A stretch of DNA of 64,000 bases, taken from Candidatus Multivoradales bacterium (GTDB lineage: Bacteria > Acidobacteriota > Thermoanaerobaculia > Multivoradales > J023). A program made the translations under genes and the position numbers. How positions within the stretch are numbered: the first letter of the stretch is position 1; each line of letters starts with the position of its first letter. Of the stretch, positions 49,048 to 64,000 are shown one piece after another. The notes under the pieces were generated by a model. The model made no database searches. It saw nothing but the letters and a program-made list of their open reading frames with translations, and was not told the DNA's origin. Location: NCBI GenBank assembly GCA_965248925.1, contig CBDFLE010000006.1, forward strand, positions 2,048,001-2,112,000, given 5' to 3'.

Positions 49048-51324
49048 ATGAAAGTCAGCTGCATCGGCGGTGGCCCTGGCGGCCTCTATTCGGCAATCCT
49101 GATCAAGGCGCGCTTCCCCGCGGCGGAGGTCGAGGTTTTCGAACGCCAGAAGCCGGGCGAGACCTTTGGCTTCGGCGTGGTGTTCTCCGACGCCACCCTG
49201 GACAAGCTGGCGGCGGCGGACGCCGAGACCTACGCCGACATTCGCGCCCATTTTGCCCATTGGGACGATATCGACATCCACCGTGCTGGTCTTTCCGGTG
49301 CGGCGGAGGTCTGGACCTCCACCGGCCACGGTTTCTGCGGCTTCTCCCGCCAGACCTTGCTCGACATCCTCCAGCGCCGCTGCCGCGAACTTGGCGTCAA
49401 GCTACACTTCGAGCATCAAGTCGACTCCCTGGAAGCGTTCGCCGAGGCCGATCTGATCGTCGCCGCCGATGGCATCAACAGCCCGATTCGCGAGCGCTTC
49501 AAGGAGCACTTCCAGCCCGATCTCGACCATCGTCCGAACTATTTCATCTGGCTCGGCACCACCAAGGCGCTCGATGCTTTCACCTTCTATTTTAAAGAGA
49601 ATGATGCTGGGTTGTGGCGGGTCCACGCCTATCAGTACGAGCAGAATCACGCCACATTCATCATCGAATGTACCCCTCGGACTTTCGCCCGCTGCGGCTT
49701 GGCGATCGATGATGAGAAAGCAACGATCGCCTACCTCGAACAGCTCTTCGCAGAGCAGCTCGAGGGCCACCGGCTGATTGGCAACCGTTCTTTCTGGCGT
49801 CAATTCCCCACCGTGCGCTGTGGCAAATGGTCGCACCGCAACATCGTGCTGCTCGGCGATGCTGTCCACACGGCGCATTTCTCGATCGGCTCCGGCACCA
49901 AGTTGGCGATGGAAGACTCGATCGCCCTGGTCGATGCGCTCGCCGCCGAGGCGGATATTCCCACCGCCCTCGAAGCCTACGAAGGTGCTTGGCGCCCCGA
50001 GGTCGAGAGCCTGCAACGGGCCGCTCAGGTCAGCCTCGAATGGTTCGAGAACGTGGAACGCTATTACGGCAGATTCACCGGGCTGCAATTCGCCTTCAGC
50101 CTGCTCAGCCGCTCGTTGCGAGTCAGCCACGCCAATCTGCGCCTGCGCGACCCGAGCTTCGTCGAGCGGGTCGATCGCGACTTCGCCAGCCGTGCTCACG
50201 CCGCCATCGACCTCGCACCGCCGGATGAGAATCAACCGCCACCGCCGCCGATGTTCACCCCCTTCAAATTGCGCGACCTAGTGCTTGAGAACCGGGTGGT
50301 GGTCTCGCCCATGTGCCAATACTCGGCCAGCGACGGCACCGTCGACGATTGGCACCTAGTCCATCTCGGCAGCCGGGCGGTCGGCGGCGCCGGCTTGGTG
50401 ATGACCGAGATGACCGCGATCAGCGCTAGCGCCCGCATCTCGCCGGGATGTGCCGGCCTCTACCAGGCGAGCCAGGTGGCAGCCTGGAGGCGGGTGACGG
50501 ATTTCGTCCACCAGCATTCCGCGGCCAAGATCGGCATCCAGATCGGCCACGCCGGACGCAAGGGCTCGACCCAAGTCCCATGGCAGCAGGCCGACGCACC
50601 GCTGGCGGAGGGCAATTGGCCCTTGCTGGCGCCGTCGGCGATCGCCTACCGCGAGCCCAATCAAGTGCCGCGCGAAATGACCCGCCAAGATCTGGACGCG
50701 GTGCTCGCCGACCACGTGCAGGCCACCGAGCTGGCCGTGGAAGCGGATTTCGACATCCTCGAGCTGCACATGGCTCACGGCTACTTGCTGTCGAGCTTCC
50801 TGTCGCCGCTGACCAACCTGCGCCGTGACGAATTTGGTGGTTCGATCGAGCAACGCATGAAGTACCCGCTCGAGGTCTTCGCGGCAGTGCGCCGGGCCTG
50901 GCCCGAGGACAAACCGATCTCGGTGCGAATCTCGGCCACCGATTGGCTCGCTGGGGGACAATCGGCCGCCGACTCAGTGGCGGTGGCCCGCGCTCTGCAC
51001 CTGGCCGGCTGCGACCTAGTCGACGTCTCCACCGGCCAGGTGGTCGCCGAGCAAGAGCCCGACTATGGGCGCCTCTACCAGACTCCATACGCCGAGCAGA
51101 TCCGCCTCGAAGTCGGCATCCCGACCCTGGCGGTGGGCAATATCTCTACCGCCGAGGATGCCAACTCAGTGCTCGCCGGTGGCCGGGCCGACCTGATAGC
51201 CATCGCCCGCGCCCATCTCTGGGATCCCTACTGGACACGCCATGCCGCCCACCGCGAAAAGCAGGCGCTGGCCTGGCCGGATCCCTACGCCACGATGAAT
51301 CAATACACCCCCCGCAAACCGTGA
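49048..51324 (+). CDS. Bifunctional anthraniloyl-CoA monooxygenase / salicylyl-CoA 5-hydroxylase-oxidoreductase
   Basis: [39 protein letters not shown], then an old-yellow-enzyme domain ([28 protein letters not shown]). Confidence 0.92.
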
Positions 51325-51358
51325 AACAGGCGGGCGAACCGATGACGAGGTATGGCTG

Positions 51359-52477
51359 ATGAGCGACGGACCAGTTTCCTACTGGGACTACATCAAGACG
51401 GAAGAATTGCTCGCGCTACAGGGTGGAGTTGACGAGCAGGAATCCGGCCTGGTGAATGACGAGGTCATGTTCATCGTCATTCACCAGATCCAGGAGCTGT
51501 GGTTCAAGCTGGCCTTGCGCGAGGTGGTCGCGGCCCGCGATCTCTTCGCTCAAGACCATGTGCCCGAGACCGCCCTGGCGGCGGCGGTGCGCGGCATCGA
51601 TCGTACCGCCGAGACCTTGCAGCACGCGGCGAGTCACTTCTCTTTGATGGAGACCATGACCACCCGCGACTACCTCTCCTTCCGCGACCGGCTCTATCCC
51701 GCCAGTGGATTCCAATCCTCCCAGCTGCGCGAGCTAGAGATCTTGCTCGGCCTGAAGACCGAGCAGCGGATCCCCCTGGGCCATGAGTCCTACCTCGACG
51801 CTCTCAAACACCACGACGGCTCCGAATCGCCCGCCTTCCAGCGGGTCATCGCTCGCCTCGAAGACCTACCGACCCTGCACGACGCCGTCGAAGGCTGGGC
51901 CTACCGCACTCCCATCGCCGGCTCTCGCCCCGAGGACCCAGGTGATGGACAGGTGGTGAGTGATTTCATCGAGCGCTACTGCGCGGCTGCTGAACAAGAG
52001 ACCTTAGCCCTCGGCGAGCGCGCCGTTTCCTTCGCCCTGACCGCGGCGGATCAGAATCGCTTGCGCGACCGCTACCAGCGCGAAGCCAGCAGCATCCGTG
52101 TTCATCTGATGGCTGAGGAGATCGAGCCCGCCGAACGCCTGCGAATCCGCCGCGTCCGGGCAGCCCTGCTGTTCATCGAAAGCTACCGCGAACTGCCCCT
52201 GCTGGCCTGGCCAAGGGCGGTGCTCGACTCGATAGTCGCCCTCGAACAGTCCTTCCTCATCTTCCGCCAGCGCCACGCCCGCATGGTCGAGCGGGTGATC
52301 GGCAACCGCACTGGCACCGGCGGCTCCGCCGGTGTTGCCTACCTCGACCGCACCGCCCTCGAATACCGCATCTTCCGCGACCTCTGGGCCACTCGCACCC
52401 TAATGATCCGCAAGGCGGCCCTACCGCCAATCGAGGGGGTTACCGGCTACGGATTTGAAGACCCGCAGAGCAAGTGA
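51359..52477 (+). CDS. kynA: Tryptophan 2,3-dioxygenase
   Basis: YWDYI, FIVIHQIQELWFK, FRDRL.PASGFQS.Q.RELE, RHARMVERVIG..TGTGGSAG..YL. Confidence 0.9.
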   Translation: MSDGPVSYWDYIKTEELLALQGGVDEQESGLVNDEVMFIVIHQIQELWFKLALREVVAARDLFAQDHVPETALAAAVRGIDRTAETLQHAASHFSLMETMTTRDYLSFRDRLYPASGFQSSQLRELEILLGLKTEQRIPLGHESYLDALKHHDGSESPAFQRVIARLEDLPTLHDAVEGWAYRTPIAGSRPEDPGDGQVVSDFIERYCAAAEQETLALGERAVSFALTAADQNRLRDRYQREASSIRVHLMAEEIEPAERLRIRRVRAALLFIESYRELPLLAWPRAVLDSIVALEQSFLIFRQRHARMVERVIGNRTGTGGSAGVAYLDRTALEYRIFRDLWATRTLMIRKAALPPIEGVTGYGFEDPQSK

Positions 52478-52531
52478 CGCCCCTCGGCCAGCGACGAGCG
52501 GCCCCTGATTTTCGGCACTGACAGTTACCCA

Positions 52532-52578
52532 TGATGTCACTTCAGCGACTTGACGTCACCCAGTGACTGACATAGGCT
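52532..52578 (+). promoter_or_regulatory. Sigma70-like promoter with overlapping palindromic operators
   Basis: TTGACG (52550-55), 17-nt spacer, TAGGCT (52573-78); TGATGTCA at 52532 and TGACGTCA at 52551. Confidence 0.55.
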
Positions 52579-52587
52579 GGTTGAATC

Positions 52588-52932
52588 ATGAGCGAAATTG
52601 AACCACGGCGCCCGGCCTTCACCCTTCGTTTTCACAATGAGGCCACCCATCGGACGCTGCGTTTAACGGCCCACACCCTCGGCGTTTCGATGAATGAGCT
52701 GGCCGAAGCAGCGATCGAGCGCGAGTTACTATTCCTCGGTGCCGATCTCGAGAAAAAGCTGAAGCGCACTGCCGATCTTCTCCGCTCCTACCGAGACGAT
52801 GAGGTCGAGTCGGATATCCAGGCCTTCGCCAAGGCGGAAATCACCGAGGATGACCCCTTGCAATCGCGCCAAGCAACCCTCGAAGATTGCTACGGCATAG
52901 GGGCCTTCTTTGCCCGTTCCCTGGAACGATGA
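52588..52932 (+). CDS. Ribbon-helix-helix-like putative antitoxin/regulator
   Basis: FTLRF...THRTLRLTAHTLGVSMNELAEAAIE fits Arc/HicB-type RHH; acidic C-terminus; overlaps the Fic gene. Confidence 0.6.
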   Translation: MSEIEPRRPAFTLRFHNEATHRTLRLTAHTLGVSMNELAEAAIERELLFLGADLEKKLKRTADLLRSYRDDEVESDIQAFAKAEITEDDPLQSRQATLEDCYGIGAFFARSLER

Positions 52933-53551
52933 CGACCCCGCTGCTCTGAAGGTCATCACCGAGAACCTGCGCGCCATTCTCCGCCAGATCGTCCTTCAGG
53001 CTCGCCACCGCAAGCCACCCAGTGTGACTATGGCGAAGCATTGGCATCGTCAGATCTATCAGGGTGTTCAACTTCCAGTTCCCTACTACCGTGGGGAGAT
53101 CCGGAACAGCGATCCAGCCTTGCCCGAGCTATACGGCTACGAAGTCGCTATTGGCACCCGCCCGGGTGTGCCATCTCGCGATGTACCAGCACAGTTGGAG
53201 AACTTCGAAGGCTTCATGGTGCAGGCCGTCGAGAGGCTCGATCGCGGCATCCGATCTGGCGAGAAGCCCGACGGCCCGGGTGAGATTCACTCCGTGCTCA
53301 CCCTCTGTGCAATTGCCCATGGAGAGTGGGTCCGGATCCACCCTTTCGCCAATGGTAACGGCCGAACAGCCCGTTTGTGGGCCAACTGGTGCGCTCTTCG
53401 CTATGGTCTGCCGCCTTTCATTCGCTTGCGGCCACGGCCAGCTGGCGATGCCTATGGCCAGGCGGCGATAGACTCGATGCGCGGTGACCATCGGGCGATG
53501 GTTACTATATTCCTGGATCTGCTGATGTATCGCCTGGCGGCCGGAGATTGA
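52910..53551 (+). CDS. Fic/DOC family protein
   Basis: Canonical HPFANGNGRTAR motif. Confidence 0.9.
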   Translation: MPVPWNDDDPAALKVITENLRAILRQIVLQARHRKPPSVTMAKHWHRQIYQGVQLPVPYYRGEIRNSDPALPELYGYEVAIGTRPGVPSRDVPAQLENFEGFMVQAVERLDRGIRSGEKPDGPGEIHSVLTLCAIAHGEWVRIHPFANGNGRTARLWANWCALRYGLPPFIRLRPRPAGDAYGQAAIDSMRGDHRAMVTIFLDLLMYRLAAGD

Positions 53552-53601
53552 GGACAAGTCAGCCGTCTTCAAAGACGAAAGTAGGACTTCCAGCTCCCCA
53601 A

Positions 53602-54257
53602 CTAGCGACGGCGCCAACCACGGAATCGTCGCCGACCACCGACGACCAGGACCCCAAGCAGCGTGGCTAGGGAAATTCCATAGCCCAGCTTCATCGCCCA
53701 GGTCCGTCGGTAGCGGAGAATCATCTCTCCATTGCCAACACCGATCATCGAACCCAGAGCATCGTAGAGCGGTAGCCGCTCACCCCAGTCTCCCTCCTGA
53801 ACCAGCTCGAACCCCGGAAAGTAGCTCAGCTTGATGCGGAACAACACCGGTTCTTCGGCCGCGACCCGCAACGCGTAGGTGGCCTTACCGATCTTGCGAA
53901 AAGAAACCTGCACCGTGTCTGGGGCAGGATCAAACTCCTGCCGTGGGCGCTGATCCACCTCATCCCGCAACCGCTCGTAGCTGTCCTCGAGCAAGAAGAT
54001 CTCAGGACTCGTGACATCCCCGTGGCAGGCTTCGAGAACCGCTGTCATCGGACGGACAAAGAATTCACGCTCCTCTTCTTCGATCGACCGCAGGTCCGAC
54101 AATGCCAGGGTCTCGATAGTCCGGTTGCTCATCGTCCGACCACCACCTGGGCGAGGACTAAGGACATAAAGATCGTACACCCGCCCCGCTACCGATCCGC
54201 TCGCTTGCCGAGTGAGGTCGAAGGCCGGGGTCCCACCCCCCAGCAGCTCATCGAAAC
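53602..54257 (-). pseudogene. C-terminal fragment of a membrane-anchored protein (YfhO-like tail), truncated by the IS
   Basis: Frame is open right up to the IS end at 54257; KLSYFPGF and a terminal TM helix with a basic tail. Confidence 0.55.
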
Positions 54258-55368
54258 GGCGCTACGACACTTTGAGTGGGTAGCGTTCACCGCCCGAGGC
54301 ATTCCGAGTAGAGATCAAGACCCCCGAGATGGAAGTAGATCGCGTTACGAAAGCGCTCCCGGTTACGGAATCCCCTGGCCGTGTACTTGACCCACTGGAT
54401 CTTCGCATTGATACCTTCGGAACGAGCAATCGTGACGTATTGGACAATGGCGGTGAGGATACCCTCCAGGTGGCGTTTTACCATCCTGGCAACCTTCTTG
54501 ATGGGTTCAAGCTGGGAGCGGATCGCCCAGGCGTACCTCTTGTTCCAGGCTTTGCGAGCATTGCCTCGGTAAGTGTAGTGCCACAGACTCATTGCGAGTT
54601 CTTTGATCGCCCATGCGCGGGCGGTCTTGAGGCTGCTTTCGCGCAGCTCCTCGAATCCCGCCCAGCGCTCAGCGCTCATGTTTCCAGGGTTCTGGAGCCA
54701 GAGGTACTTGCTGCCCTTCAGGAACTCATCACCTTGGCTGATGAGAATCTTGTTCTCCTGTCGGCGGATCTTGTCCACCGCCTTGGACAGGTGCTGGGCC
54801 ACATGGAACTTGTCGAAGGCGATCTTTGTCTCGGCCCCAGGAATGTACTGCTCGGTCGAGCCGATGTACGCTGGCCACATGTCCATCGAGACGGACTCGA
54901 CGGCCTCTCTGTCCTCTTCGTCGAATGCTTTGTAGAAGTCGTCGAGGCAGTCTCGGCCCCGACCGTCGGCCACATGAATGACGACACCTTGCTGCTGGTC
55001 ACAGACCACGGTCACGTACTCATGGCGCTTCTGGAAGGAGGTCTCATCCACACCGAGACGCTGAGGGAGTTTGCGCTCTCGCCGAGCCAGACCTCTGGCT
55101 ACTGCTCGGGGGTACTGGCAGGTATCCAGATGCCGCCAGCGACGGGAGCGGGTGTCGTCGCCGCTGCACGGCTTGCCGCATTCAGGACAGGGTGGGCGCT
55201 TCTCGCCGTTGATCAGATGCACCAAGACTTCACCCTCTTCCAAGGCCAGGTCTACTTCAGTGACACGCCACGGCGATTCGATGCCCAGGATCTTCGCGTA
55301 CAGGTCTTTGTCTCGCATCCAGACAGCCTTTCCGCTGGTCCATGGCCCACACAAGATACGGTAGAGCC
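54258..55368 (-). mobile_element. ISL3-family insertion sequence, internally deleted
   Basis: Imperfect 23-bp terminal inverted repeats: GGCGCTACGACACTTTGAGTGGG (54258-80) and CCCACACAAGATACGGTAGAGCC (55346-68), 16/23 match; no target duplication seen. Confidence 0.8.
54287..55318 (-). pseudogene. ISL3 family transposase with in-frame internal deletion
   Basis: CPECG..RRWRHLD zinc-finger half joined directly to RAVARGLARR; LGVDETS, SMDMW, FDKFHV, SEGINAKI, ARGFRN. Confidence 0.85.
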
Positions 55369-55440
55369 AAATCATCAAGCCACATTGGCCAACAGGGAAA
55401 ACACTGCTAAAGAGAAGAGATCACTGCAAAGTATTGACCA

Positions 55441-56590
55441 CTAGACTGTGTTGCTGGCCGCGACTCGCAAATCCTGGTCGCGGGCTTCGGTTCCGTTGAC
55501 CACCATGGCGATCAGGATCCAGCAACAGCAGGCAAGGGATGCTACCAGCTGGGTGTAGTCGAATAGCGATTGCACCCAAGTTGCTAGCAGAGCCAAATAA
55601 GCGCCCGCCAGGAGCGAACGACGCAGCAACAACACTCGACCGTGATGCAGCACCCGGAAAAACACCATCAGCAGCAAGCCGGTGGCCGCCAATCCCTGTT
55701 CCGCGGCAACTTGCAGCATCATGTTATGAGCATGCTCGTGGGGCTCGCGGGGAACTATCCAGTCCGGGTAGTAGAGATGCAGGTCGCGAAAGAAGCTACC
55801 GAGGCCGATACCGGTAACCGGCTCGGCAGGTTTGCCGGCGACGGCCGCGACCCAGACCAGCGGTTGGCCGAAGAGCAAAAACCCGGCGAGCACATTGGAT
55901 CCGGTAAACAGTCCAACGGCCCGTTCGACACTATAGATAGCCTCGGTTCCACCGCGCAAGAAGGATGCAATTCCCGCGACCGCCGCCAAACCCAGGGAAC
56001 AGACCATCGCCAAGACGGCCCATTCTGCCCCTCGACCCCGCAGCCGATGGCGGGCAAAAGCATAGCAGAGCAGGGCTTCGAGCCAAGTCAACAAGGGTCG
56101 TAAGCCCTCCTCTCGCAGCGGCCCTAGCCAACAAAACGACACCTGGCCACCGTTGAAAAAAAAGGTCTGGTGGCCAATGCCACGGGCCATTCCAGGGACG
56201 CAGGATAAGCGCCGAAACACAGCTGGCCACGGTCAGACCAAACAACACCAACAATAGGCGGTCTTCGACACTCCACCGCCAGCCCGGCTCCTGGTGCCAA
56301 AACTGCCGGGCGAGCCAGATGAGCAAAAGCAGCAGTAAGAACGCTTCGAAAACCGGCGCCGATACATATAACGACGAACGGCGAAAGGGCAGAACCAGCA
56401 GTGGCAGAACCGCCAGCAAGCCAACGAAGGCCCGCGTTTCGTCGATCAACACCCGGCCCAAGAACCCGACGAGGGCGATCCCCAGCCACCCGTTGATCCT
56501 CGGCGCCAGCAGCGACCAGAGGGCCAGAGCACAGAATACCCACGCCAAGCCCCAGCCCAGCCTCTCAAAGAAATTGCGAAATCTACTCAC
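55441..56590 (-). pseudogene. O-antigen ligase (Wzy_C/WaaL-like) membrane protein, frameshifted and shortened
   Basis: Hydrophobic N-terminal half in one frame; RAVGLF..SN.LAG, PVTGIGLGSF and HAHNMMLQVAAEQGL in another. Confidence 0.7.
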
Positions 56591-56737
56591 CTGCCTTCCA
56601 AGCGGAGTGGAGTCTTCAACGGTTAGCGATCCAGCCGATAAACTAGGCAGCAGCTCGACCGCCCGTGACCATCGACAGTGGCATGACGACGGTCATACAG
56701 CCCGCAGCAACTCCTGGTTATTCTCGGAGATCCTGAC

Positions 56738-58171
56738 ATGACAGATGGCGCCCCACTCCTCGAGCGGCTATTCACCCTCGATTTCTCCGAACAGTCCTAT
56801 CCCATCGAGAGAATCGACGGTCAGGTGCCGGACTTCGTCCGCGGCACTTACTACGTCAACGGCCCAGCCCGCTTCGGCCGTGGTGAGCTGCGCTACCGCC
56901 ACTGGCTCGATGGCGACGGCATGGTGGCGGCGCTGGCCTTCAGCGAGGGCGGCGTGCGCTTCACCAATCGCTTCGTCCGTGGTACCAAGCTAGTGCAAGA
57001 AGAGGAGGCTGGACGAGCGCTCTACCGGACCTTCGGCACCGCTTTCACCGGCGACCGGCTCAAGCACGGTGTCGGTATCGAATCGCCACTCAACGTCAGC
57101 ATCTGGAAATTCGCCGGCAAGCTGCTAGCCTTCGGCGAACAGGGGCTGCCGTACGAGATCGATCCCGTCACTCTCGAGACCCTTGGCGAGTACACCTTCG
57201 GCGGACGGCTCAACGGCATCAGCCCATTCTCCGCCCATCCCTGCTTTGACGATTCGAGCGGCGAGATGTTCAATTTCGGCATCTCCTTCTCGGCCATGCA
57301 CCCGCTGATCAACCTCTACCGCTTTGCCGCCGACGGCCAGATGATCTACCGACGGCGGCTGCCCATCCCCTATCCCTGCTCGGTCCACGACTTCTGCCTC
57401 AGCCCTCGCTACGCGGTGGTCTACCTGAGTCCACATCTGCTCGACATGGAAGCCATCAGGGACGACGGCAAGACCATCATGGAAGCTCTCGACTGGCAGC
57501 CCGAGCGCGGTAGCCAGCTGCTCATAGCCAGCCGCGAAACCGGCGAGACGGTCGCCTCGGTCGAACTCGGCTCGCGTTACTGCCTGCACCTGATCAACAG
57601 CTTCGAAGAAGGCGGGCGACTGACCGTCGACGTGGTCGAACTCGACCGGCCGGTCTACGATCAATACCAAGTGATCCCCAACCTCTTCACCGACCTCCTG
57701 GCCGGGCGACCGGTGCGTTACGTCATCGACCCAGCAACTTGGAAAGTCCTGGAGACTCGCGAACTCAAATACGACCGCGAGCCCGACTTCCCGGCCATCG
57801 ACCCCCGCCACTGGGCCCAGCCCTACGACCACTTCTGGATGCTCGGCATGTCCAAAGCCGGCCAGCGGGGACGCAAGTTCTTCGACCAATTGGTGCATCT
57901 CAGCTGGTCCCAAGAGAGCACTAGCGATATCTACCAGGCCCCTGCCGGCCACTACCTTGGATGCGAACCGATCTTCATTGCTGATCCTGAAGATCCCACT
58001 GGTGGCCTGGTGATCTGCAAGCAGTTCGACGCCGAGAGGCTGCGGGATGCCTTCCTGCTCTTCGATGCCCACAACGTCGCCGCTGGCCCGGTGGCGACCC
58101 TGCACCTCAAGGAACCGACCCCGCCGGGGTTTCATGCTTTATTTCACCCGGCAGGGGCGAGTGATGGGTAG
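56738..58171 (+). CDS. Carotenoid cleavage oxygenase (RPE65/lignostilbene dioxygenase) family protein
   Basis: GTYYVNGP, HWLDGDGM, four Fe-ligand His motifs (SAHP, VHDF, LHLINSFE, GFHA), EPIF. Confidence 0.9.
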   Translation: MTDGAPLLERLFTLDFSEQSYPIERIDGQVPDFVRGTYYVNGPARFGRGELRYRHWLDGDGMVAALAFSEGGVRFTNRFVRGTKLVQEEEAGRALYRTFGTAFTGDRLKHGVGIESPLNVSIWKFAGKLLAFGEQGLPYEIDPVTLETLGEYTFGGRLNGISPFSAHPCFDDSSGEMFNFGISFSAMHPLINLYRFAADGQMIYRRRLPIPYPCSVHDFCLSPRYAVVYLSPHLLDMEAIRDDGKTIMEALDWQPERGSQLLIASRETGETVASVELGSRYCLHLINSFEEGGRLTVDVVELDRPVYDQYQVIPNLFTDLLAGRPVRYVIDPATWKVLETRELKYDREPDFPAIDPRHWAQPYDHFWMLGMSKAGQRGRKFFDQLVHLSWSQESTSDIYQAPAGHYLGCEPIFIADPEDPTGGLVICKQFDAERLRDAFLLFDAHNVAAGPVATLHLKEPTPPGFHALFHPAGASDG

Positions 58172-58287
58172 AGGCGATCTTGATAAATTGCCATCAAAAG
58201 TTTAAGGAGACTTTAGGCTAGCTCACAGTGCTAGCGCTCAAGTTCAGCCACTTGCCAAGGACAGGTTCCGTTACCGACTCATGCCGA

Positions 58288-59436
58288 TCAGATTTCCCCG
58301 GGAAGGTTCCTTGAGATCAACACTTGCATGATTTGGCTACTGCCTTCGATAATCTCCATCGCCCTGGAGTCGCGCAGATAGCGGGCCACCGGATAATCGG
58401 CGGAGAGACCGTTGGCACCGTGCAGCTGCACCGCCGCCGCCGCCGCCGCCGTACAGGTTCGGGAGGCAAAATATTTGGCTATCTGGATTTCTCCAGTGGC
58501 GCCCGGATCGCCAAGCTGCCGCAGATAGCCGGCCCGGTAGCACAGCAGGCGGGCGGCACGGGTGCTGACCACCATCTCGGTGAGCTTTCGCTGGACCAGT
58601 TGATGCTCGCTCAGCAGCTTGCCGAACTGCTGCCGCTCAGAGGTGTAGTCGAGACTGGCGTCGAGGCTGGCCTGGGCGATCCCAACCGACCCCCAAGCGA
58701 CGCTGTAGCGACCCAGGTCGAGACCAGCGGAGGCCACATGGGAAAAGCCGAAGCCCGGCCTCCCGACCATATTCTCGCGTGGAATGCGGCAACCATCGAA
58801 GGTGAGTTCGGCCAGCATGGAGGCCGCTGTACCCATCAGGCCATGGATCGGCTGGCGCGAGAAACCGGCGGCGTCGGCAGGCACCAGAAAGGCCGCGGGG
58901 CCCTCCTCACACTGCGCCAGCACCAAGATGATGTCGGCCACCTGACCATAGGTGATCCACTTCTTACGCCCATCAAGGATCACTTCATCACCCTCAAACC
59001 GAGCCCGCGTCGTGATGTGGCGAGCATCGCTACCCACCTCGGGCTCGGTGAGGGCAAAGGCTCCGAGAAGCTCGGCGCTGGCCATCCTGGGTAGCACCGT
59101 CTCCTTGAGGTGTTTGCTGCCCCAGCGAAAGACGCAGAAGGTCGTCATGTCATGCACGGTCAGCAACGAGCGGACCGACGAACAGGCGCGACCGATCTCC
59201 TCTGTCAGAATGCCGTAGGTGATCGCATCCAAGCCGCCCCCGCCTACCTCCTCGGGGAAAGGCGTGCCGAGGTAACCCCGCTGGACCAGCTTGCGAACGA
59301 ACTCGCTGGGCACTTTCTCTTGCCGCTCCCAAAGTCCGGCATGAGGAGCGACTTCCGCCGCCGCGAAGCGTCTGAATTCCTCTCTCTTGGCGACCTGCTC
59401 GGCCGACAGTTCAATACGTATGCCCTCTTCGTTCAT
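58288..59436 (-). CDS. Acyl-CoA/acyl-ACP dehydrogenase (FkbI/ZmaI-like)
   Basis: CSSVRSLLTVH, FALTEPEVGSD, GRKKWITYGQ, RQQFGK, AVQLHGANG, IIEGS. Confidence 0.88.
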   Translation of the reverse strand: MNEEGIRIELSAEQVAKREEFRRFAAAEVAPHAGLWERQEKVPSEFVRKLVQRGYLGTPFPEEVGGGGLDAITYGILTEEIGRACSSVRSLLTVHDMTTFCVFRWGSKHLKETVLPRMASAELLGAFALTEPEVGSDARHITTRARFEGDEVILDGRKKWITYGQVADIILVLAQCEEGPAAFLVPADAAGFSRQPIHGLMGTAASMLAELTFDGCRIPRENMVGRPGFGFSHVASAGLDLGRYSVAWGSVGIAQASLDASLDYTSERQQFGKLLSEHQLVQRKLTEMVVSTRAARLLCYRAGYLRQLGDPGATGEIQIAKYFASRTCTAAAAAAVQLHGANGLSADYPVARYLRDSRAMEIIEGSSQIMQVLISRNLPGEI

Positions 59437-60039: not shown

Positions 60040-61182
60040 ATGAAGAAAGCCAAGCGTCGCAACCTCACGCGGGTGCTCTCGGCGATGGCGCTGGGTGCAC
60101 TGCTCGCCCAGGCCAGTCAGGGGGCAATCTTCTCCCGCGAAAGGCTGAGGATCCTCGGCGACTTCCGCACCAGGTTGGAAAGTGATTTCGACTCCCAGCG
60201 GGCTGACGGCAGGGCACGGGAAGATCGCACCCGCCTGCGGGTTCGGGCCCGGCTGGGACTCGATTACGCTGCCAGCGATCGCTGGTCATTCGCCCTTCGC
60301 TGGCGCTCTGGAACCGCCGACAGCCATCAATCGCCACACATCACAGTGCTCGACTTCGACCACAACGACACCGGCGACGCTGATTTCAACCTCGACCGCT
60401 GGTACCTGAAGCGGCAGGGAAAGAAAGCTTGGGCCTGGATCGGACGCAACAATTTGCCCTTCTGGAAGCAGAACGAACTCTTCTGGGATAGCGATGTCAC
60501 CCCCGCCGGCCTCGGTTTCGGTTTCGAGACCACCGTCGGTAACAGCCAGAATCTCGCTCTCAATGCCGGTTATTTCTCACTACCGGTGGGCCTGCGCGAT
60601 TTTGCCGGCAACCTGGGCGTCGCGCAGCTGGTGTACGCATCGAGTCGTCTGACCGCCGCGGGGAGCCTGTTGTTGTTCGACGCCAATAGCGGTGACGCGA
60701 ATGCCGCCAGGCTGCTGCGCGGCAATGGCCTCCGCGACTACACTCTCTGGGTAGGATGTCTGCAGTTAAAGCTCAAAGCCGGCAGCCGACAGCTCACCCT
60801 GGGAATCGACGGGGTATACAACAGCAAAGACTACTCGGCCGCCGATACCGATCCGATAACCGCTGCCAACCATGACCAGACCACCGGCTTCGTCCTTTCG
60901 GCCAAGCTCGGCGGCACTCGCGAACAAGGGGATTGGCTGGCGGCGTATTACTACGCCGAAATCGAAGCCCTGGCGGTCAATGCCTCTTTCTCCCAGGACG
61001 ACTGGCTGCGCTGGGGCTCCGCCAACGAGACCCGATCGAGTGATTTCAACGGTCACGAGCTGCGCTTTGCCTACGCCCTGGAGAAAAACGTCAAGTTGGT
61101 TGCTCGACTCTACTTGGTGGAAGCCATCACTAGCAGCGAAGACGGTGGTCGCTTTCGGCTGGATCTCAACTACACTTTCTAA
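60040..61182 (+). CDS. Putative outer-membrane porin
   Basis: Signal peptide, GDFRTRLE, RTRLRVRARLG, LFWDSDVTP.G, C-terminal RFRLDLNYTF. Confidence 0.75.
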   Translation: MKKAKRRNLTRVLSAMALGALLAQASQGAIFSRERLRILGDFRTRLESDFDSQRADGRAREDRTRLRVRARLGLDYAASDRWSFALRWRSGTADSHQSPHITVLDFDHNDTGDADFNLDRWYLKRQGKKAWAWIGRNNLPFWKQNELFWDSDVTPAGLGFGFETTVGNSQNLALNAGYFSLPVGLRDFAGNLGVAQLVYASSRLTAAGSLLLFDANSGDANAARLLRGNGLRDYTLWVGCLQLKLKAGSRQLTLGIDGVYNSKDYSAADTDPITAANHDQTTGFVLSAKLGGTREQGDWLAAYYYAEIEALAVNASFSQDDWLRWGSANETRSSDFNGHELRFAYALEKNVKLVARLYLVEAITSSEDGGRFRLDLNYTF

Positions 61183-61275: not shown

Positions 61276-64000
61276 ATGAGTCTCAGAGCGCCATTTCACT
61301 GCCACTGGCACTTGCTGACGATCCTCGCAACGATCGTCGGACTGCTGGCCATTGCTTGCACCGAGCGCTCGCCAGCCACGGATCCAGCAGTCGACTCGCT
61401 GGCCGAGGGTTCCTGGCCCACCGAGTCACTAAACTCCGCCGCCGGTGCGACCAAGAAGCTCTTTCTCGATTCGATCCAAGGCGGCGCTTTGGACCCCGAG
61501 GCGGCGGCACAAATCTTCACCCAGGGCTTTCGCGGCGAGGACTTTCACCAGCGCCCGACCGACGACCCTCGAGTCGAGTCGGGGATCTCCCTGGCCGAAT
61601 GGCAGGCAACGGCGGCCGAGCTCGACGCGGCGACCTTCCACCAACGCTGGAATGCCTATCTCGCCAACCTCGGTGAAGTGCAGAGCGTCGAGATCCACAC
61701 CTGGGAGATCCAGCTGCGACCGCAAGCCGACGGCCAGGCTGGCCTGGAAACCCGAGAAGCGGTGTGGATCCTCAGTCAGTTGCCGGATGGCCGACTGCGC
61801 GAAGAGCGGCTCTACCTGATCATCGACCTGATTGAGCTGGCTGGCGATAGCGGCTGGCGAATCGCTAGCCTGCGCAGTGCCGATGGCCGCACCAGCATCG
61901 CCGCGGGGCCGTTCTTCCACGATGTCACCCACCGAGTGCTGCCTCCTGGTTTCGACCAGATCGGCGCCCAGATCTACACCGACGGCGGACCGGTGCTGGC
62001 CGACTTCGACGGCGACCACGATGTCGACCTCTTCATGCCCCGCCTGCACGCCCCGGCGAGGCTGTACGAAAACGACGGTTCGGGCCACTTCGAGGACGTC
62101 ACCACCCGCCGCGGCCTGGAACTCAACCTCCTGCGGCAGGGATCCAACAGCGGTCTGTTTCTCGATCTTGACCGCGATGGCCTGCTGGACTTGGTGATCG
62201 GCTCCAAAGAACATGGCCTGCTCCTACTGCGCAATGATGGCAACCGTTTCCACGACGCCACCGGCAGCGAGCCGCTGGCCGAGGCCGGTGATTGGGAGTC
62301 GCTGGCGGCGGCGGACTACGATGGCGACGGTTGGATCGATATCTACCTCACCCAATACAATCTGATCGATGCCGACCATCAACCCGAGAGCTACATCGAC
62401 GCCCAAGATGGCCGCCCCAACGTGCTGCTGCGCAATCTCGGAGGTGAAGGCACTACCTTCACTTTCGCAGATGTCACCACCGCCGCTGGCCTCAAACCGC
62501 AGAGCGAGCGCTGGAGCTATGCCGCCTCGTGGGCCGATTACGACCGCGATGGTGACCTCGATCTTTTCGTCGCCAACGACTACGGCCGCAACAGTCTGTA
62601 CCGCAACCGCGGCGGGGCCGCCGGTTTCGACGAAGTGGCTAGTGAGGTAGGCGCCGACGACCTGGGCAATGGCATGGGCGCCTCGTGGGCCGATCTCGAC
62701 GGCGATCTGTGGCTCGATCTCTACATCTCCAACATGCAGTCCTTCGCCGGCAACCGCATCACCCGGCTCGAGAACTTCCCCGGCTCGGACGCCGAACGCA
62801 CCCTCTACCGCCGCTTTTCCCAGGGCAACACCTTGCTGCACAATCTTGGCGACGGCACCTTTGAGGACGCCACTGAAGGCGCTGGCCTCCGCGGCGCCTT
62901 CTGGGCCTGGGGCAACTTGGCTTTCGACTACGACGCCGACGCCGACCTCGATATCTTCGTCTGCGGCGGTTTCTACACCGGTGTTTCGGCGAAAGACACG
63001 TGAAGCACCTTTTGGCGCCAGGTCATGGCGTCCGAGAGCAGCGGCCAGAGTCAGAACCGTGAGCAAGGCCATCGCAACCACTTCCGGATGTTGCAAGAAG
63101 AGGGTCTGTCGTGGAGCGGCCGCGAACCCAACACCCTGTTCCAGAACCGTGGTGTGGGTGCGGACGGCAACACCACTTTCGACGAGGTGGGCAACGTCCT
63201 CGGGGTCTACCTGCGTCTTGATAGCCGCGGCGCAGCGGTCGCCGATCTCGACGGCGATGGTGATCTCGACCTGGTGGTCTACAACCGCAACAACCCGACT
63301 TTGAAGATCTACCGCAACGACACCCACGGACAGGGCAATTTGGTGCTGGTCGATCTGCGTGGCAATGCTAGCGGCACGCTGGCGGCCGGCGCCCAAGCCG
63401 TACTTACCTGTGCCGGCGAGCAGCAACTCAGACAGGTGGAGATCGGCTCGGGCTTCCTTTCGCAGGGCCCACCGACGCTGCATTTCGGCCTCGCCGCTTG
63501 CCCGCAGATCTCCTCCATCGAGGTGCGCTGGCCCTCGGGCGAAGAGCAGCGCTGGCAGGACTTACCGGTCAATCAGCGGCTCACCCTGACCGAAGGCAGC
63601 GACGGTTTCACCGCCACACCTCTCGAACGACGCAACTATAATCGCAACGAGCTGGCGGTGGCGGCAGGGGAACTATCAGCACCTCGCCCCGACCTCAGCT
63701 TCGACCCCGTCGCTGGCGGCGAGTCGATCGCCCTGGCCGATCTCGACAACACTACCGTCGTGCTCAACTTCTGGGCCACCTGGTGTACCGCCTGCGTCGC
63801 CGAGATGCCCGAACTCGAGGAACTGCACCAGCGGTTCGGGCGGCGAGGAGTGCGCTTCTTCGGCATCTCCTTCGACGAAGGGCGGCCGCAAGCGGCGGTG
63901 CGTGAGTTTCTGGCCGAGCACGGCATCACCTACGAGCAGGTGTGGGGTAGTGTCGAGCAGCAGCAGCCCTTCGCCTCCCTCGGCGCCTCTCCACCGGGGG
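61276..64000 (+). CDS. FG-GAP/VCBS-repeat (CRTAC1-like) lipoprotein with ASPIC/UnbV and TlpA-like thioredoxin domains; in-frame UGA at 63001 (putative Sec); runs off the window
   Basis: Lipobox LAIAC; repeated DxDxDGxxD motifs on both sides of the UGA; same frame stays open from 63004 to 64000 with GSGFLSQ..LHFGL..VRWPSG and LNFWATWCTAC. Confidence 0.8.
63010..63037 (+). promoter_or_regulatory. Candidate bacterial SECIS element
   Basis: UUUUGGCGCCA-GGUCA-UGGCG(U)CCGAGA hairpin; loop begins with G at nucleotide 18 after the UGA. Confidence 0.65.

Follow-up and report, generated by a model that had tools for sequence, protein, structure and literature searches.

Known prokaryotic selenoproteins are mostly small thioredoxin-fold proteins or metabolic redox enzymes. 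In the fdhF gene of Escherichia coli, the selenocysteine insertion sequence (SECIS) is a hairpin that lies directly 3′ of the UGA within the coding sequence and carries a GGUC-type apical loop. ResA, TlpA, and DsbE are free, membrane-anchored thiol-disulfide oxidoreductases in which a WxxWCxxC motif is followed three residues later by a glutamate, and a DsbD-type protein is the usual electron source for domains of this kind. Neisseria PilB is an exported redox enzyme with its own thioredoxin-like recycling domain, in which a DsbE/TlpA-like domain fed by DsbD is fused to the MsrA and MsrB enzyme that it recycles. CRTAC1 consists of an FG-GAP β-propeller followed by an UnbV_ASPIC domain and is not known to contain selenocysteine (Sec) or a thioredoxin-like domain. 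Here, we analyze a gene that starts at position 61276 in a 64,000-nucleotide stretch of DNA from Candidatus Multivoradales bacterium (Acidobacteriota; contig CBDFLE010000006.1), a stretch that we call the window. This gene appears to encode a CRTAC1-like propeller fused to a ResA/TlpA-like domain, and an in-frame UGA codon within the propeller region (63001-63003) very probably encodes Sec. As we discuss below, multiple comparisons support this assignment.

Conservation of the in-frame UGA and its hairpin

The open reading frame (ORF) upstream of the UGA ends at that codon, and the same frame then runs without another stop to base 64000, the end of the window. In the genome sequence, a TAG terminator is found 110 nt farther on, giving a read-through gene of 944 codons (61276..64110). 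The sequence-only reading had described this interrupted frame and had placed the stop inside a series of FG-GAP repeats followed by an UnbV domain and a WATWCTAC motif. Pfam bears out both points, with seven FG-GAP_3 stretches that flank the TGA on both sides (PF13517, 134 bits; PF01839 also matches), an UnbV_ASPIC domain (PF07593, 76 bits; residues 703-770), and an AhpC-TSA/Redoxin match that starts at residue 805 and includes the motif (residues 833-840). The same reading had proposed that the UGA encodes Sec and had named as checks the aligned codon in homologs, interchange of TGA with cysteine, covariation in a downstream hairpin, the presence of selA, selB, selC, and selD, and the accuracy of the sequence at 63001. 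Each check came out in favor of the proposal.

First, the TGA codon is conserved at the exact aligned column across the phylum to which the window belongs. A protein search with residues 440-720 as query listed 120 matches, including the ORF in the window itself. Among these matches, 71 are called ORFs of 504-712 residues, all of which end in ...D[TL] right before the TGA position, and the 70 other than our own are 53-85% identical to it. The remaining 49 are full-length relatives with 29-42% identity, in which the aligned column contains M (21), A (10), S (5), N (5), D (3), E (2), G (1), L (1), or a gap (1). The public gene calls we found for the interrupted form thus all stop at the TGA position (70 shortened ORFs among the matches listed), and no read-through record occurs among the 120. 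The named relatives belong to Acidobacteriota, Thermoanaerobaculia, and Vicinamibacteria. A DNA search of 401 genomes of the phylum gave 104 matches in 86 genomes, of which 101 were aligned; the match of one unpublished genome (G152) was left out. TGA occupied the column in 70 of the 101 loci, and these 70 span 58 genomes, 33 genera, and 22 families (one of them, L027, comes from the unpublished genome G049). The 31 TGA-less loci carry E (9), N (5), S, A, G, or D (3 each), Q, V, Y, or L (1 each), or Cys (1) at this position. Clearly distinct subfamilies have the TGA, among them DT-U-S[TIV]FWRQVMASES, KDL-U-SF[FL]WRQVVSQSP (long forms with TPR repeats), MKDT-U-S[FL]FWRHVVAS, PDDL-U-SFFWRQVVPRAP, PDF-U-TFFWRQVVADAE, and others. 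Residues invariant across 45 alignment rows (F579, W580, G643, D649, D657, D661, G662, G705, Q730, G738, W752, and P753) accompany invariant residues on the other side of the TGA.

Second, the codon recurs in a second phylum and interchanges with cysteine. A scan for the pattern D[TL]C[STV][FLT]FWR[QHS]V with Cys codons, using one genome per species, found seven loci with TGC at the column (L123-L129): four from Bryobacterales/Bryobacteraceae and one each from Polarisedimenticolia, Phycisphaerales, and an unclassified bacterium. Together with the Cys locus of the phylum-wide alignment (L119), eight loci have TGC in place of TGA. We then sampled 301 Planctomycetota genomes, a set built around the Phycisphaerales genome with the Cys form, and obtained matches in 87. 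Among the 150 matches listed (46 more lie beyond these), 134 contain one TGA, one contains three, and 15 contain none. When 20 Planctomycetota loci were aligned, 19 had TGA at the same column and the last was the Cys form. In the 70 loci of our phylum and these 19 Planctomycetota loci, the codon that breaks the frame is always TGA and never TAA or TAG. The Phycisphaerales Cys form, in a metagenome-assembled genome (L127, identical to L130; G401:C32:22820-23386), still has the full hairpin GCGACAGGUCGUGUCGC downstream of its TGC codon, and tRNA-Sec is still present in that genome, suggesting a recent change from Sec to Cys that left the SECIS behind as a relic. Planctomycetota genomes carry up to 10 family copies. 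In one with 10 matches (G633), five members stand in tandem within 15 kb (G633:C253:28756-43772), each with one in-frame TGA, and this array is a local expansion of the putative selenoprotein gene.

Third, a hairpin of the SECIS type follows the codon and covaries. The sequence-only reading had pointed to a hairpin with loop GGUCA 18 nt after the UGA. RNAfold agrees, predicting a 12-bp stem with one bulged U (63031) and placing the first loop base at the 18th nucleotide after the UGA. Its minimum free energy is -23.6 kcal/mol (z -2.0), and 5 of 200 shuffled sequences fold equally well; taken alone, the hairpin in the window is only modestly better than chance, and its significance comes from the comparative data. 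The codons for W-R-(Q/H)-V-V-x (UGG CGN CAG GUC GUG NCG) make up the stem. Across 60 distinct Sec-form rows (duplicates, one row with an N, and L027 were left out), pairing holds in 73.7% of cells over a 10-pair stem, compared with 45.8% in the 31 non-Sec loci, which serve as a control because most of them encode the same WRQVV peptide. The observed covariation score was not matched by any of 500 shuffles, and registers slid along the alignment pair far less than the true one, with the exception of -3 (66%). In the key pair, 24-34, the third position of the Arg codon pairs with the first position of a codon five farther on; in the Sec rows this pair is C-G (35), G-C (8), G-U (5), U-A (5), A-U (2), or unpaired (5), and it forms in 12 of the 31 TGA-less homologs. 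The synonymous third base of Arg thereby tracks the identity of a later residue, as C-G goes with Ala, G-C with Pro, U-A with Thr, and A-U or G-U with Ser. Mean hairpin energies are -12.1 kcal/mol for the 70 Sec loci and -6.2 kcal/mol for the 31 non-Sec loci. The Planctomycetota loci add compensatory variants, including AGC..GCU (Arg to Ser), UGC..GCA (Arg to Cys), and CGG CGC GUC GCG UCG, in which the stem is kept even across amino-acid changes. These comparisons indicate that the hairpin is maintained by selection. Like the fdhF element, it follows the UGA directly within coding sequence and has a GGUC-type loop at comparable spacing; its stem sequence differs, and SelB binding is putative here.

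Finally, genomes with the TGA form have the machinery to use it. The window genome encodes matches to selD (282 bits), selA (516 bits), selB (353 bits), and tRNA-Sec (70.8 bits; anticodon tca), all above curated cut-offs. Among the 58 Sec-form genomes, 54 have selA, the other four (G081, G230, G318, and G255) have a tRNA-Sec match at 68-76 bits, and none lacks both. Co-occurrence with selA is a weak test because 301 of the 401 genomes of the phylum have this gene; of the 27 genomes with non-Sec forms only, 5 fall outside the selA-positive set. All five multi-copy Planctomycetota genomes have selA. G021 carries its Sec-form gene on the strand of selA and ~0.6 kb upstream of it (interval G021:C1:1154223-1158321), and in G175, of the same genus, the two genes again share a strand and lie ~4 kb apart (interval G175:C9:31335-38751). 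TGA is not reassigned: our gene ends in TAG, and close relatives end in a second TGA; selA, selB, and selD contain no internal stops. Two matches within the window genome deserve mention in their own right. The selD match (L001; G000:C6:4002031-4002954) lies in an open frame of 819 residues, more than twice the 311 positions of the model, and may be a fusion protein or merely a long open frame in GC-rich DNA. A weak match to the tRNA-Sec model (L020; G000:C5:848435-848514; 39 bits, below the gathering score) sits immediately downstream of selA (C5:848573-849931) and may be an ordinary long-arm tRNA; the strong tRNA-Sec match is at C6:1930732.

Domain structure and a possible selenol-thiol relay

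An AlphaFold2 model was calculated from a 45-row alignment of 13 read-through Sec forms and 32 full-length non-Sec relatives (mean predicted local distance difference test score, pLDDT, 83.6; predicted template-modeling score, pTM, 0.83). Residues 1-38 have pLDDT values below 50. Residues 118-209 form a helix and four long strands, which look NTF2-like on our reading of the DSSP line of the model, and propeller strands begin at about residue 240. U576 is modeled as the first residue of a helix (576-587) that follows a short strand and a loop. A catalytic Cys or Sec at the N-terminus of a helix is typical of thioredoxin-fold enzymes and glutathione peroxidase.

Foldseek gave murine CRTAC1 as the best match in the PDB (9etn_A; E 6.7e-28; TM-score 0.75 on the target), and the order of propeller and UnbV_ASPIC domain places the protein in the CRTAC1/ASPIC-UnbV group. 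A profile of the Sec region matched CRTAC1 alone among PDB sequences and aligned to 9etn on the FG-GAP repeats only, outside the D[TL]-U-SFFWRQVV helix, so this search yielded no structural precedent for the Sec site; the helix seems specific to the bacterial branch. Relative to CRTAC1, the bacterial proteins have an extra N-terminal domain and a TlpA-like domain, and those of many lineages also carry TPR repeats. For the C-terminal domain, Foldseek matches were ResA, TlpA, and related thiol-disulfide oxidoreductases, with TM-scores of 0.8-0.85, and the domain shares with them the WxxWCxxC motif and the glutamate three residues after it. Scores against the ResA/TlpA families NF002854 and NF047696 were 54-55 bits, with curated cut-offs of 170 and 230; the C-terminal region is thus a domain related to ResA/TlpA and not a member of those named families. 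It is fused here, not a free membrane-anchored protein, and its proposed target would be a selenol in the same polypeptide. A weak likeness is to exported thioredoxin-fold proteins of Sec-using bacteria, such as WAxxUGC_long (NF041054), for which our protein scored 26 bits against a cut-off of 300. In the UGC-containing TlpA and Redoxin (UxxC) families, as tabulated, Sec lies inside the CxxC-type motif (PMC13188914, Table 1), whereas the motif in our protein is WATWCTAC, with two cysteines, and the putative Sec is ~260 residues upstream in another domain.

The only Cys columns specific to Sec forms at a level of at least 30% are the Sec column itself, C837, and C840. The CxxC motif is intact in 69 of the 70 Sec loci, the exception (L100) being a locus whose retrieved sequence stops short of the domain. 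For 15 of the 31 non-Sec loci, the retrieved sequence shows no thioredoxin-like domain, and the other 16 have CxxC (3), SxxC (5), AxxC (3), AxxS (3), CxxK (1), or PxxA (1) at the motif. The glutamate three residues after the motif is present in 97% of Sec forms and 10% of non-Sec forms; we take its position to be that of Glu80 in ResA, and PDB entries for the E80Q variant of ResA are among the Foldseek matches. The window genome also encodes a DsbD_TM protein, which could supply the electrons. Repeated loss of Sec followed by decay of CxxC fits this pattern, which is suggestive and not proven.

These features can be assembled into a mechanism. SelB and tRNA-Sec would decode UGA 63001-63003 as Sec, directed by the SECIS hairpin formed from the codons immediately downstream (W-R-Q-V-x-A-S), and the gene would yield one exported protein, probably a lipoprotein, with an NTF2-like N-domain, a CRTAC1-like FG-GAP propeller, an UnbV_ASPIC domain, and a C-terminal ResA/TlpA-like domain. 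Sec576, the first residue of a helix that interrupts the propeller, would act as a redox-active, nucleophilic selenol on a substrate in the envelope, for which peroxide, disulfide, and sulfoxide are candidates. Oxidized selenium would then be resolved by Cys837 and Cys840 of the fused domain, and this CxxC pair would be re-reduced from the cytoplasm through a membrane protein of the DsbD/CcdA type. The arrangement resembles that of Neisseria PilB, although the catalytic domains are unrelated and PilB uses Cys, not Sec. We regard a selenol-thiol redox relay of this kind in the cell envelope as an evenly balanced proposition. The sequence-only reading had raised the possibility that Sec is redox-coupled to the CxxC domain of its own protein; co-conservation (69 of 70 compared with 3 of 31 loci) now favors that idea, and the coupling itself stays inferential. 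Somewhat better than even, in our judgment, is the broader view that these proteins constitute a large, so far unrecognized family of envelope selenoenzymes, each combining a CRTAC1-like propeller, with Sec at the start of a helix, and a built-in TlpA-like reductase domain that supplies the CxxC.

Several observations weigh against Sec at this position or against the role proposed for it. No RNA run containing the stretch was present among the sequencing runs searched. Cys homologs are rare, and in most TGA-less homologs the column is occupied by E, N, S, A, G, D, or M; such non-Cys residues are unusual for a catalytic Sec, and the residue could be dispensable for the basic role of the fold. 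Model confidence near the site is moderate, with pLDDT values of 78 for residues 571-580 and 53-69 for residues 581-600. Three non-Sec forms retain CxxC. A FastTree tree of the propeller region implies at least eight changes between Sec and non-Sec forms, only four of which are forced by well-supported branches; across independent pairs, CxxC changes in the same direction in 2-3, in the opposite direction in none, and not at all in 1-2, a sign test that is not significant because supported pairs are too few. The 5′ arm of the stem, with its WRQVV codons, is also constrained as protein, and conservation of the stem is therefore partly non-independent of coding, a concern addressed by the much lower pairing in non-Sec homologs with mostly the same peptide. 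An Rfam scan of 62900-63150 at E values up to 10 found no family match, which says little because Rfam has no fitting general model of bacterial SECIS elements.

Competing explanations

The alternative that survives best accepts Sec insertion and assigns it another function. Here, the residue would be a ligand or trap for a metal or metalloid (Cu, Hg, or As, for example) or would be structural, and the thioredoxin-like domain would act on another target or would only keep the selenol reduced instead of recycling a catalyst. Methionine is the commonest residue at the column in the full-length non-Sec matches listed (21 of 49), and Met and Sec are both soft ligands. Several bacterial selenoproteins in the catalog table bind metals (PMC13188914, Table 1), and reduction of copper chaperones by TlpA-type domains is indicated by the title of PDB entry 4txo. 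Against such a role, non-Sec forms differ widely at the column (E, N, S, A, G, D, Q, V, Y, or L) with no conserved ligand set apparent, the propeller has no other Cys or His column specific to Sec forms, and the tight co-conservation of Sec, CxxC, and Glu better fits a redox partner. We consider a ligand or structural role unlikely.

The UGA could instead be a true stop in a split or decaying gene, with the downstream half either untranslated or started separately at ATG 63025. The 70 shortened public ORFs among the matches listed do end here, and the ATG is only 24 nt downstream. This explanation must accommodate an identical codon, always TGA, in 70 loci of the phylum and 19 of Planctomycetota that belong to distant subfamilies; it places the break inside a propeller that is modeled as one unit (pTM 0.83) and gives no reason for covariation in the hairpin. 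Separate translation from the ATG, which the sequence-only reading had listed as a finding that would overturn Sec, does not fit the peptide between the two codons (S-x-F-W-R-Q-V), which is conserved as protein, or most relatives, which lack the ATG and read ...WRQVV... or ...WRHVV... at that position. A true stop is therefore very improbable.

Just as improbable is read-through outside the Sec pathway, whether a suppressor or near-cognate tRNA (Trp, Cys, Gly, or Arg) translates the UGA or the code has changed locally. Read-through of stop codons exists in bacteria and provides a general precedent. TGA still ends genes, however, including relatives of this one, and is absent as an internal codon from selA, selB, and selD; every Sec-form genome has selA (54 of 58) or tRNA-Sec (the other four); the position and GGUC-type loop of the hairpin, compared with those of fdhF, are as expected of a SelB site; and eight loci have Cys in place of the codon.

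A sequencing or assembly error at 63001-63003 has a negligible chance of being the cause, and nothing in the data speaks for it: contigs from four sequencing runs, all on a single sample from which this assembly probably derives, show no differences over 62600-63400, which makes an assembly slip unlikely, and the same codon in more than 85 other loci, through its conservation in other genomes, makes the question irrelevant.

Genomic setting and meaning for the family

Sec decoding of the UGA remains the reading that we prefer, and Table 1 gives the coordinates of the features to which it refers.

Table 1. Features of the putative selenoprotein gene, in window coordinates
Feature	Position	Strand	Description and basis
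ORF 5′ of the TGA	61276..63003	+	575 aa; C-terminal end ...GFYTGVSAKDT before TGA 63001-63003
Putative selenoprotein gene, part 1 (residues 1-575)	61276..63000	+	Signal peptide with possible lipobox, NTF2-like N-domain, FG-GAP blades
Signal peptide (predicted)	61276..61359	+	Ends LAIA-C28, which we take to match the lipobox pattern of a possible lipoprotein; translation read by eye
In-frame UGA, residue U576 (putative Sec)	63001..63003	+	Conservation of the TGA column; Cys (TGC) in 8 loci
SECIS-type hairpin	63009..63038	+	Loop GGUCA 63021-63025; codons W-R-Q-V-M-A-S; RNAfold, family pairing
U576 helix, helical hairpin, last FG-GAP blades, UnbV_ASPIC	63004..63687	+	Pfam, AlphaFold2, Foldseek
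UnbV_ASPIC domain	63382-63585	+	Residues 703-770; Pfam
ResA/TlpA-like thioredoxin-fold domain	63688..64000	+	Cut by the window end; Pfam AhpC-TSA/Redoxin, Foldseek
CxxC (C837 and C840)	63784-63795	+	Within WATWCTAC, residues 833-840

Directly upstream of the gene, on the same strand, an ORF of 380 residues (60040..61182) matches Porin_5 (E 1.3e-14) and has a start resembling a signal peptide. The gene that follows past the window end (L022; 4381..5724; G000:C6) begins 46 nt after the selenoprotein gene and encodes TPR repeats followed by an FG-GAP repeat; Sec forms of other lineages have a C-terminal TPR region and reach 1360-1440 residues, and this neighbor may be a functional partner that is fused elsewhere. 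Farther upstream, 49048..59436 encodes a fusion of Oxidored_FMN and FAD_binding_3 domains, tryptophan 2,3-dioxygenase, a Fic-domain protein, an RPE65-type carotenoid oxygenase, and an acyl-CoA dehydrogenase. No functional clue is evident from the Porin_5 protein, the TPR/FG-GAP paralog, or the genes of 49048..59436. At 22 further places, the window genome (G000) contains ~20 more CRTAC1-like paralogs without in-frame stops, several of which are clustered (for example at C6:4264715-4269720 and C6:2727290-2746607); the gene described here is the only Sec form among them.

We found no earlier description of this family as a selenoprotein. The catalog of Zhang et al. (2026) contains 119 prokaryotic selenoprotein families or subfamilies, and Table 1 of that paper has no FG-GAP, UnbV, CRTAC1, or propeller entry, nor do these terms appear in the paper (PMC13188914). 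Section 17 of PMC4807772 does not mention the family, and Table S9 of that paper, which lists Planctomycetes candidates, could contain a prior mention. A full-text literature search of 8.1 million PMC papers and 0.36 million preprints, a scope that excludes subscription papers and supplementary tables, returned no paper linking Sec to FG-GAP, UnbV, ASPIC, VCBS, or CRTAC1, and only general surveys on Acidobacteria selenoproteins and new selenoprotein families. In NCBIfam release 20, no model covers the propeller or the Sec site in 45 family members, the only matches being to TPR and thioredoxin-type models. The authors of deep-Sep state that current methods depend on Cys homologs and may miss families without them (PMC12013277). 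The present family would have been overlooked because gene callers split the gene and because Cys homologs, which discovery pipelines need, are rare. It is large and consistently misannotated. We take the decoding to be Sec recoding of the usual bacterial kind, set in a protein family and fold that have no selenoprotein on record so far.

About 1 in 7 of the genomes sampled from the window's phylum contain the family, as do up to 29% of the Planctomycetota sampled (87/301). If the assignment is correct, it would be among the most numerous selenoprotein families in these phyla, and soil and aquatic members of Acidobacteriota and Planctomycetota would have more selenoproteins than are now counted, with several copies in some genomes. 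Hundreds of gene models that are now split in two would be corrected, and a blind spot of pipelines that require Cys homologs is exposed. Sec, Cys, and "dead" forms exist side by side, with CxxC decaying in parallel, which amounts to a natural experiment on why Sec is retained or lost. Sec in a CRTAC1-type β-propeller would add a new structural context for selenium, and it would give the first functional handle on bacterial ASPIC/UnbV proteins.

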